IMG/VR virus record: IMGVR_UViG_644736364_000003
From: a virus
Taxonomy: Duplodnaviria > Heunggongvirae > Uroviricota > Caudoviricetes
Direction: 5' to 3' (one strand)
Length of the DNA: 46,137 nucleotides
Of this stretch, positions 38,645 through 38,987 are shown in pieces. The notes beneath the pieces are model-generated. The model was given only the letters and a program-made list of their open reading frames with translations. It had not been told where the DNA came from and did no database searches. The stretch's first letter is position 1. Each line of letters opens with the position of its first letter. The position numbers and the translations under genes were made by a program.

Positions 38645-38857
38645 AAAGAATAAAAAAATCCCGCAGTGATCGCGGACAGGAACTGCGGGAGAGTTACGAA
38701 GATTAAGTGTAAGGAATTATTCTTATATCACGACAAAAAAATTAACGCAGAGAAATTATACGCGCCACAGTCAGTTTGTGAAAATGTGAAGATATTCAGA
38801 ATTTTTATGCCATTACCGGTTTTAACCAACAGGATTATCGGTGGGCATGAAAGAAAA

Positions 38858-38890
38858 CCCCGGTATCTGCTGATACCGGGGTTTCTCTTT
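38858..38890. terminator. Strong bidirectional hairpin/terminator inside a 340-bp I-J spacer
   Basis: Perfect 10-bp stem CCCCGGTATC/GATACCGGGG with 4-nt loop, flanked by A-run upstream and T-run downstream. Confidence 0.5.
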
Positions 38891-38987
38891 AGCATGGCAG
38901 AAATGTGTTTCATGCTTTTCGGGCGAAGGATATCCGACTTCTGTACGGAATGGCAAGTGGCGGTTAATTTATTCAGGGGAAGGCTGT

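Follow-up and report, generated by a model that had tools for sequence, protein, structure and literature searches.

A predicted PasB-family antisense small RNA gene and a hairpin-bearing module in the I-J tail gene gap of a lambdoid prophage

The gap between genes I and J

The stretch of DNA analyzed here, hereafter the window, is the 46,137-nt IMG/VR virus record IMGVR_UViG_644736364_000003 (Caudoviricetes), and our subject is the gap that separates its tail assembly gene I from gene J, the gene for the tail tip and host specificity. The stop codon of I (TAA, 38642-38644) and the start codon of J (ATG, 38988) delimit a gap of 343 nt (38645-38987), in which the GC content is 41.7%, against 60.8% in I and 57.5% in J; in the I-proximal 164 nt of the gap it is only 35.4%. 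A preliminary description, made from the sequence letters, had reported an AT-rich spacer of about 340 bp with two strong hairpins at this place, and that is what is found there. We consider it quite probable that the gap is an accessory insert in a lambdoid prophage and that it is built from two modules: module A (38645-38808), next to I, with a predicted small RNA (sRNA) gene of the PasB/EcOnc22-24 family on the minus strand, and module B2 (38809-38987), next to J, with the second and stronger-stemmed of the two hairpins. The features of the locus are as follows, the two flanking genes being given last.

38652..38748, minus strand: predicted sRNA gene of the PasB/EcOnc22 family, identified by profile match, probe match, and alignments; predicted transcript of ~97 nt that starts with GCGUUA
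38652..38689, minus strand: hairpin 1, predicted Rho-independent terminator of the sRNA, identified by terminator scan, fold, and conservation in the family
38755..38782, minus strand: predicted sigma-70 promoter of the sRNA, with -35 element TTCACA (38782-38777), spacer of 16 nt, and -10 element TATAAT (38760-38755); 11 of 12 consensus positions matched
38785..38800, no strand assigned: conserved box TGTGA-AGATAT-TCAGA, flanked by AAA and ATT, with half-sites conserved across cassettes
38809..38987, no strand assigned: module B2 (179 nt), defined by alignment of gap types; J-proximal alternative to the shorter B1 of the E2348/69 and Sakai prophages
38855..38884, no strand assigned: hairpin 2, candidate two-way intrinsic terminator, identified by fold and stem search; tails UUUCUCUUU (plus strand) and UUUUCUUUC (minus strand)
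38927..38956, minus strand: weak promoter-like site, TTGCCA, 18-nt spacer, TATCCT; 9 of 12 positions matched
37964..38644, plus strand: tail assembly gene I, the upstream neighbor, from the list of open reading frames (ORFs) and Pfam Lambda_tail_I (E = 3e-16)
38988..42680, plus strand: gene J (tail tip and host specificity), from the ORF list, Pfam FNIII-A_GpJ and Phage-tail_3 (GpJ domains), and the RefSeq annotation of the identical strain

No convincing small ORF was found in the gap, either in the ORF list or on inspection of the sequence. The gap might still be read as a decayed or unannotated protein-coding moron, represented by a 113-aa ORF on the plus strand, by 94-aa and 44-aa ORFs on the minus strand, or by a 37-aa ORF that starts at 38895. 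ORFs of such lengths do exist, and some relatives have a genuine gene, sodC, in the same gap. However, none of the candidates has a recognizable ribosome-binding site, the long ones run across both hairpins, the sRNA promoter, and modules that are swapped independently in relatives, and RefSeq annotates no coding sequence in the gap. Protein-coding readings were rejected on these grounds, and a protein moron appears extremely unlikely.

A predicted PasB/EcOnc22-24 family RNA on the minus strand

Hairpin 1 consists of a 7-bp stem (CCCGCAG, 38660-38666, and CTGCGGG, 38683-38689) and a 16-nt loop; the preliminary description was right about the hairpin itself but had given it an 8-bp stem at 38668..38700, about 8 nt too far to the right. 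A run of seven A residues (A7, 38652-38658) precedes the hairpin on the plus strand, and the minus strand reads the stem, an A, and then U7 (38658-38652). A terminator scan called a minus-strand terminator at 38676..38660, followed by ATTTTTTT, and a promoter scan of 38000-39600 returned three promoter-like sites, every one of them in the gap and on the minus strand. The 5' end of the sRNA (G38748, seven nt downstream of the -10 element) is a prediction from the position of the promoter rather than a mapped end, and its 3' end is taken as the U7 run, 8 nt short of the stop codon of I; the gene overlaps neither flanking coding sequence. In the predicted fold, an unstructured body, which bears the conserved motifs AUCUUC and AUUCCUU, is followed by the terminal hairpin.

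PasB (pathogenicity-associated sRNA B) of enteropathogenic Escherichia coli (EPEC) E2348/69 is an 83-nt RNA encoded on the minus strand of prophage PP6 (NC_011601, 1466343-1466261; Table S6, PMC8550237), where it is flanked by E2348C_1436 and E2348C_1437 (PMC8550237). The listed interval is the I-J gap of PP6; this gap aligns to positions 38645-38808 of the window, and at the homologous place E2348/69 has the identical promoter, TTCACA-16-TATAAT, and the same pair of promoter and terminator. The probe that was used for PasB in Northern blots, AATCCCGCAGTGATCGCGGAGCT (PMC8550237), matches the plus strand of the window at 38657-38679 in the first 20 of its 23 bases. PasB was verified by Northern blotting, depends on Hfq, and has 37 partners in RIL-seq (PMC8550237); its level is higher in overnight culture in lysogeny broth (LB) than in Dulbecco-modified Eagle medium (DMEM) (PMC8550237).

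In enterohemorrhagic E. coli (EHEC) O157:H7 Sakai, EcOnc22, EcOnc23, and EcOnc24 were described as peaks in Hfq-CRAC, with a Northern band of ~85 nt that is destabilized when Hfq is missing (PMC4104026). We found that these peaks map, antisense to the tail genes, to the I-J gaps (240 nt) of the Sakai prophages Sp15, Sp14, and Sp11, and that the first 23 nt of the EcOnc Northern probe are identical to the tail-sense strand of the homologous sRNA body. The equivalence rests on these first 23 nt, the remainder of the probe, the text of which comes from a machine-read PDF, being different from the genome. The printed coordinates of EcOnc22-24 lie ~130 nt off the sRNA body and were set aside as a version shift, AgvB lying ~128-140 nt further along in NC_002695.2 than in the paper; the probe settled the assignment. 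The vicinity of another Hfq peak, EcOnc54, was also checked and proved to be a different insertion: in Sakai Sp6 (L086, NC_002695.2 1576300-1578300), tail gene L is separated from the tail assembly gene that follows it by an insertion with a minus-strand gene for a transcriptional regulator and a gene for an antirepressor, and EcOnc54 maps near there.

A profile built solely from the two verified RNAs, PasB of E2348/69 and EcOnc22 of Sakai, and in that sense noncircular, gave a full-length match at 38748..38651 on the minus strand (E = 2.5e-11), its sole match in the window. The window sRNA is 67% identical to each of the two, and the longest word that it shares with them is 26 nt. When 13 divergent members were aligned, the 7-bp terminator stem and the U7 run were invariant, whereas the loop (9-16 nt) and most of the body varied; the members have in common the GCGUUA start, a U-run, a (A/U)(C/U)UCC motif, and an AUCUUC motif just 5' of the terminator. 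The last is present in 12 of the 13, including the window sRNA, and it is in the region just 5' of the terminator that a recent preprint places the PasB seed (bioRxiv 10.64898/2026.05.13.724894).

To judge from their sequences, PasB of EPEC and EcOnc22-24 of EHEC, which were named independently, are one family. This equivalence emerged from the present analysis; as far as the two Pas papers were searched, neither makes the link (PMC8550237; bioRxiv 10.64898/2026.05.13.724894). The preprint, as far as it was searched, contains no discussion of PasB promoters or of tandem copies, and describes the distribution of PasB within Escherichia on the basis of blastn with a word size of 28 (bioRxiv 10.64898/2026.05.13.724894). 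Because the longest shared word is 26 nt, such a search would be expected to miss the window variant.

Taken together, module A very likely holds a self-contained minus-strand unit, a divergent member of the PasB/EcOnc22-24 family, whose expression and function can be predicted from those of its homologs. The preliminary description had listed an sRNA gene among its possibilities. This idea fits the I-proximal half of the gap, where hairpin 1 would be the family terminator; it applies to the minus strand, which that description had not considered.

The homologs also bear on how such an RNA would act. The sRNA might work in cis, pairing or colliding with the late transcript and so controlling the tail-tip gene, or being sponged by that transcript. 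It is encoded antisense within the late operon, a perfect duplex of ~97 bp could form, and transcription would be convergent. However, the sRNA overlaps neither a coding sequence nor the ribosome-binding site of J, from which it is 240 nt away, and its homologs are bound by Hfq and were seen in chimeras with numerous unlinked mRNAs, both core and accessory. From phage to phage, moreover, the tail genes remain similar while the body varies freely, and targets in trans fit this pattern better. Action in cis is therefore decidedly improbable, and we favor an RNA that would act in trans.

The family is widespread. Matches to the 164-nt PasB module (38645-38808) occur in 1846 of 5426 complete E. 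coli genomes, at 4745 places and with up to 9 per genome, and among the matches listed none has an annotated feature under it. The whole locus recurs in identical form in, for example, strain SK1144 (NZ_AP018784.2, 2876564-2876994). The phage loci had been collected by their similarity to two alleles of I, and the proportions given here and below are not population estimates. Next to the window-type I allele, all 80 of the 80 adjoining gaps contain the sRNA terminator and all 80 are matched by the family profile, whereas with lambda-type I alleles all 75 delimitable gaps are 59-60 nt long and without the sRNA, and the profile matches none of 80 loci. The spacer had been regarded as an insertion relative to lambda, and these counts bear that out; that I and J of lambda are contiguous is roughly right, although the lambda gap is 60 nt long and itself has a GC stem and a T-run. 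In 103 further phage contigs with recognizable I and J, the copy in the gap is antisense to the tail genes without exception (103/103), and one of these contigs has an extra profile match outside the gap. The 207 copies from phage contigs reduce to 54 distinct sequences, which form nine clusters at 85% identity, and the position of the -10 element is conserved in all nine.

Some contigs have two to four tandem cassettes in the I-J gap. Three to four tandem PasB-like cassettes were seen in L279 (300-1260), L269 (4330-5110), and L274 (reverse strand), each unit with its own terminator, variable body, -10 element, and TGTGA-N6-TCAGA box; one type of unit has a different terminator, TCTCCCGT...ACGGGAGA. 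The preprint reports no tandem PasB copies and gives 28 kb as the minimum distance between copies (bioRxiv 10.64898/2026.05.13.724894). In five contigs (L068, L069, L071, L073, and L076), a minus-strand gene for a Cu/Zn superoxide dismutase (sodC, Pfam Sod_Cu) lies upstream of the sRNA, and the I-J gaps that contain it measure 848-903 nt. In three of them (L068, L069, and L071), the sRNA promoter and the box are gone and the sRNA body directly follows the sodC terminator; here the sRNA might be made by read-through or processing. Because tandem cassettes, sodC, and antisense sRNA copies are all found in this gap, the I-J junction is a hot spot for antisense accessory cargo, in keeping with the moron concept (Juhala et al. 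2000; Cumby et al. 2012; as cited in PMC7067206).

The box upstream of the sRNA promoter agrees with the core of the CRP site (TGTGA-N6-TCACA) at 9 of 10 positions, and at 14 of 16 when the flanks are included. It lies 24 nt upstream of the -10 element in every cassette; its half-sites are invariant and its spacer is variable throughout the cassette clusters and in each unit of the tandem arrays. Nucleotide diversity (pi), computed here and below over 74 distinct haplotypes of the window junction type, is 0 for the box. It is present in 77 of 80 gaps and missing, together with the promoter, from three sodC variants. The Sakai copies have no recognizable -35 element, yet they are expressed, which hints at an activator; the sole hint that this might be cAMP-CRP is the higher level of PasB in overnight LB than in DMEM. 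The box may take part in transcription of the sRNA. A reading of it as a LexA box, made by eye only, was rejected, as the critical CAG reads CAT.

Hairpin 2 and module B2

Among relatives of the window, the J-proximal part of the gap exists in alternative, nonhomologous versions. The junction types are as follows.

B2: the window, and 54 of the 80 gaps sampled; hairpin 2, followed on each strand by a U-rich but interrupted tail
B1: E2348/69 and Sakai, 21 of 80; CAGGCACC(C)...GGTGCCTG followed by TTGTTTT on the sense strand; terminator called by the scan
sodC: 5 of 80; sodC terminator
Lambda-type: lambda and 75 related loci; AAACCGCC-loop-GGCGGTTTT, with an invariant stem and a variable loop

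A terminator inside the late operon had been considered unexpected. This view is not supported: a terminator-like hairpin before J is normal, because the lambda-type, B1, and sodC-type junctions have different hairpins or terminators at that place, and just upstream of J a GC stem followed by a T-run on the sense strand is the rule rather than an oddity. Of the two observations that, at that stage, were together to refute the description, one was made, the spacer being ordinary and widespread, and the other was not, as in the homologs the end of a transcript has been mapped to hairpin 1.

Hairpin 2 is a perfect 13-bp stem (38855-38867 and 38872-38884; 10 GC-rich pairs and 3 A-T pairs) with a 4-nt loop, flanked by AAAGAAAA and TTTCTCTTT. 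The perfect stem and the A- and T-run flanks had been seen correctly before, with a shorter stem (10 bp) and a different position (38858..38890). Its folding energy is -25 kcal/mol on either strand (z = -5.1 and -6.6 relative to shuffled sequences), and it is the only perfect stem of at least 13 bp with a real loop in the 46-kb window. Among the junction types compared, only the B2 hairpin has a good U-tract on the minus strand as well. The most likely role of hairpin 2, and one that we favor by a modest measure, is that of an insulator and of a terminator that works in both directions, and it may be what is left of a second cassette; both terminating and insulating activity are predicted from its structure.

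That hairpin 2 may derive from a second cassette is suggested by its left flank. Here, GGATTATCGGTGGGCATGAAAGAAAA resembles the 3' end of I and the linker that precedes the cassette terminators in tandem arrays, and it is followed by short stretches that match, colinearly, the left half of the box as well as the post-box segment. The statistics are weak (E values of 0.03-0.6 in a tiny search space), and we regard hairpin 2 and B2 as a possible decayed sRNA cassette. The related idea of a moron remnant is plausible for hairpin 2, which stands at the position of a cassette or sodC terminator and has this weak colinear similarity to the linker, but it is not proven. In one contig (L256), hairpin 2 has a different left flank, which was looked at as a clue to the origin of B2 and proved uninformative: an IS3-family element (OrfA and OrfB; 4600-6030) has inserted inside B2, between the sRNA and hairpin 2.

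A stronger version of the same idea holds that hairpin 2 terminates a second, still active sRNA on the minus strand, so that two antisense genes lie in tandem. If the weak promoter-like site at 38956..38927 were used, a hypothetical RNA of ~70-75 nt would run from ~38920 to 38846 and end at hairpin 2; its parts would be a stem at the 5' end (AGCAUG/CAUGCU), a linker rich in A, and a strong terminator whose tail is UUUUCUUUC. The site is on the right strand and at the right distance, tandem cassettes do occur in the same gap of L279, L269, and L274, the similarity to the linker and the colinear matches point the same way, and B2 shows higher conservation than J does at codon positions 1 and 2. 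On the other hand, a 9/12 promoter match is no more than chance would give (1.2 such sites expected in the 1.6 kb that were scanned), and B2 lacks an intact TGTGA-N6-TCAGA box, a GCGUUA start, and the family body, and is not matched by the PasB profile. The similarity to the linker is short, with the E values given above, and we found no published sRNA that maps to B2. We consider a second active sRNA unlikely.

Another possibility is that hairpin 2 acts on the sense late mRNA, as a processing or stability element or as a partial terminator that sets the ratio of I to J, and not as an insulator. Three to four unrelated sequences keep a GC stem and a sense T-run immediately upstream of the ribosome-binding site of J, and lambda, which has no sRNA to insulate, has such a hairpin, with the stem of the lambda type invariant and its loop variable. 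However, the B2 hairpin alone has a good U-tract on the minus strand too, and the J leader downstream of hairpin 2 shows no unusual structure (z = +0.9 relative to shuffled sequences). As the main role of hairpin 2 this is doubtful, though less so than a second sRNA; it is compatible with a two-way terminator and insulator, and the two are not exclusive.

Module B2, at the end of which lies the ribosome-binding site of J (GGGGAAGG), varies very little. It is present in 1445 of 5426 E. coli genomes (~27%) and in 1441 of 1450 E. coli records its identity is 99% or more, whereas this level of identity is reached by the first 300 nt of J in 731 of 1883 records and by the last 300 nt of I in 320 of 1884. 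Across the module, pi ranges from 0.001 to 0.005; it is 0.002 in hairpin 2 and 0.002 in B2 to the right of it (0.001 without the stretch 38885-38905, which holds the motif used to select loci). In the first 200 nt of J, pi is 0.023 over all positions, 0.063 at third codon positions, and 0.003 at codon positions 1 and 2, and in the sRNA it is 0.138. The 133 nt from hairpin 2 to the start of J are thus less variable than codon positions 1 and 2 of J.

No homolog of B2 in another context was found in searches of E. coli genomes, of one genome per species, and of IMG/VR. The core of hairpin 2 was found outside E. coli only in E. albertii when one genome per species was searched, the other matches being chance palindromes in unrelated taxa, and all its occurrences in IMG/VR lie within the B2 context. 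B2 is probably a young module of single origin that took the place of the shorter B1. A young module without an allelic partner would have gained new mutations only, while its flanks would draw on an old, recombining gene pool. Alternatively, B2 may be under purifying selection. This alternative belongs to a broader reading, which we regard as tentative and rather doubtful, in which the I-J junction is a dedicated slot for modular sRNA cassettes (one to four in tandem) and B2 is a selected functional element. In each cassette, a promoter with a CRP-like box and a terminator, both of them fixed, would then frame a pairing region that varies freely, and B2 would be either a second, undescribed antisense sRNA that ends at hairpin 2 or an element that controls the host-range gene J.

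Proposed mechanism and relation to known systems

The explanation that probably accounts best for the gap as a whole is an antisense PasB-family sRNA module combined with an insulating hairpin 2 module. In the lysogen, the sRNA would be transcribed from its own sigma-70 promoter (38782-38755) and would end at hairpin 1 and U7. By homology, it would be bound by Hfq and act in trans, base-pairing with host and accessory mRNAs, and its pairing determinants would lie in the single-stranded body: the family-wide AUCUUC just 5' of the terminator and UUCCUU, which resembles an anti-Shine-Dalgarno sequence. Hairpin 2, which lies between an A-tract and a U-tract, would stop RNA polymerase not modified by Q in both directions, and would in this way insulate the sRNA cassette from antisense transcription out of J and J from stray sense transcription. 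In lambda, Q-modified polymerase reads through such sites, and during lytic growth Q-antiterminated late transcription would pass both hairpins. The homology, position, strand, terminator and promoter anatomy, distribution, and conservation of these elements are shown here; expression, the size of ~83-85 nt, Hfq dependence, and RIL-seq partners have been shown by others for the homologs (PMC8550237; PMC4104026).

Several observations are hard to reconcile with this picture or leave it less secure. The window sRNA is just 67% identical to either verified RNA, the body that should carry the seed is the most variable part (pi = 0.138), and expression of the window variant is predicted from its homologs. 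The published 5' end of PasB is 15-16 nt downstream of where its near-consensus promoter would place the start (L001, E2348/69, 1059 versus 1466343), a difference that may reflect either RNA processing or an imprecise 5' end derived from read coverage. There is no covariation among the 13 divergent members of the family, in which the terminator stem never varies. Rfam has no matching family: neither a permissive scan of the gap nor a scan of the whole window at gathering thresholds placed a family over the gap, no PasB family was matched, and the best scores in the gap were 15-20 bits, against cut-offs of 39-315. The box is centered at approximately -44.5 from the predicted start, off the canonical class II position of -41.5, and for this reason we call it CRP-like and not a CRP site; matches to the CRP core with at most one mismatch are not more frequent in the window than expected by chance (2 found, 1.3 expected). 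Hairpin 2 was not called by a simple terminator scan, because part of the T-run is absorbed into the stem, and its U-tracts are interrupted on both strands. Finally, the extreme conservation of B2 could mean that it has a function beyond that of a passive insulator or a relic.

The main feature of the gap is already known biology, a prophage-encoded, Hfq-dependent sRNA, and the initial observation is largely explained. What is new is, first, that the family is larger and more diverse than the published survey suggests (1846 of 5426 genomes, and at least nine clusters at 85% among the sampled copies) and, second, that PasB of EPEC and EcOnc22-24 of EHEC are joined as one family across two pathotypes. 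New leads are the CRP-like box, which is invariant in every cassette, and the unusually invariant 179-nt module that adjoins the host-range gene J. If it is true that the variable body sets the targets, each variant could rewire host regulation differently in commensal, extraintestinal pathogenic, and EHEC backgrounds.

A few further observations concern gene I and the remainder of the window. The I protein is 67% identical to that of lambda. In the RefSeq annotation of the identical strain (L146, 5464-6045), gene I starts later and encodes 193 aa, compared with 226 aa in the longest ORF, and this longer form aligns to the lambda protein from residue 1. Positions 15595-16183 hold a typical RNA cluster of the lambdoid late region, composed of three tRNA genes (15595-15841), STnc100 (15920-16128, plus strand), and an AsxR-like anti-sRNA (16131-16183, minus strand), whose score is exactly at the Rfam threshold. 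A unit of isrK and C4 antisense RNA is present twice, ~865 bp apart (isrK at 6645-6721 and 7511-7587; C4 at 6746-6833 and 7609-7696), which indicates a duplicated module for immunity or antirepressor control. A perfect 22-bp palindrome, TCAGGCCACCGCGGTGGCCTGA, lies at 29300-29321, within the structural gene region.

The I-J junction of lambda resembles that of the window in having a GC stem and a sense-strand T-run directly upstream of the ribosome-binding site of J, an arrangement kept in 75 of 75 lambda-type loci; it differs in its gap of 60 nt, its unrelated sequence, and its lack of an sRNA and of a good minus-strand U-tract. The lambda hairpin, too, is not called by a simple terminator scan. 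The anti-sRNAs AgvB and AsxR (Tree et al. 2014) are likewise borne by prophages, bind Hfq, combine a conserved 3' terminator part with a variable 5' pairing part, and occur in several copies per genome. However, they have no sequence similarity to the window sRNA and occupy a different slot, the late-promoter and Q region, and PasB is not known to act as an anti-sRNA.

The closest relatives of the window sRNA are PasB and EcOnc22-24. PasB shares with it the I-J slot, the antisense orientation to the tail genes, the 3' end adjoining the stop codon of I, the identical terminator (CCCGCAG/CUGCGGG and U7), the promoter TTCACA-16-TATAAT, the GCGUUA start, the upstream box, and the AUCUUC motif; unlike PasB, the window sRNA has a terminator loop that is 5 nt longer, and the J-proximal module is B2 (179 nt) in the window and B1 in E2348/69. 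EcOnc22, EcOnc23, and EcOnc24 have the same position, strand, and sequence family, and differ in their 67% identity, the weak -35 element of the Sakai copies, and the J-proximal module B1. In its organization, finally, the cassette is comparable to the morons of lambdoid late operons (lom, bor, and sodC): it is an autonomous promoter-terminator unit within the late operon, antisense and AT-richer than its flanks, and one of these morons, sodC, sits in the very same gap in relatives, although morons carry protein-coding cargo, whereas the predicted cargo in the window is an RNA.

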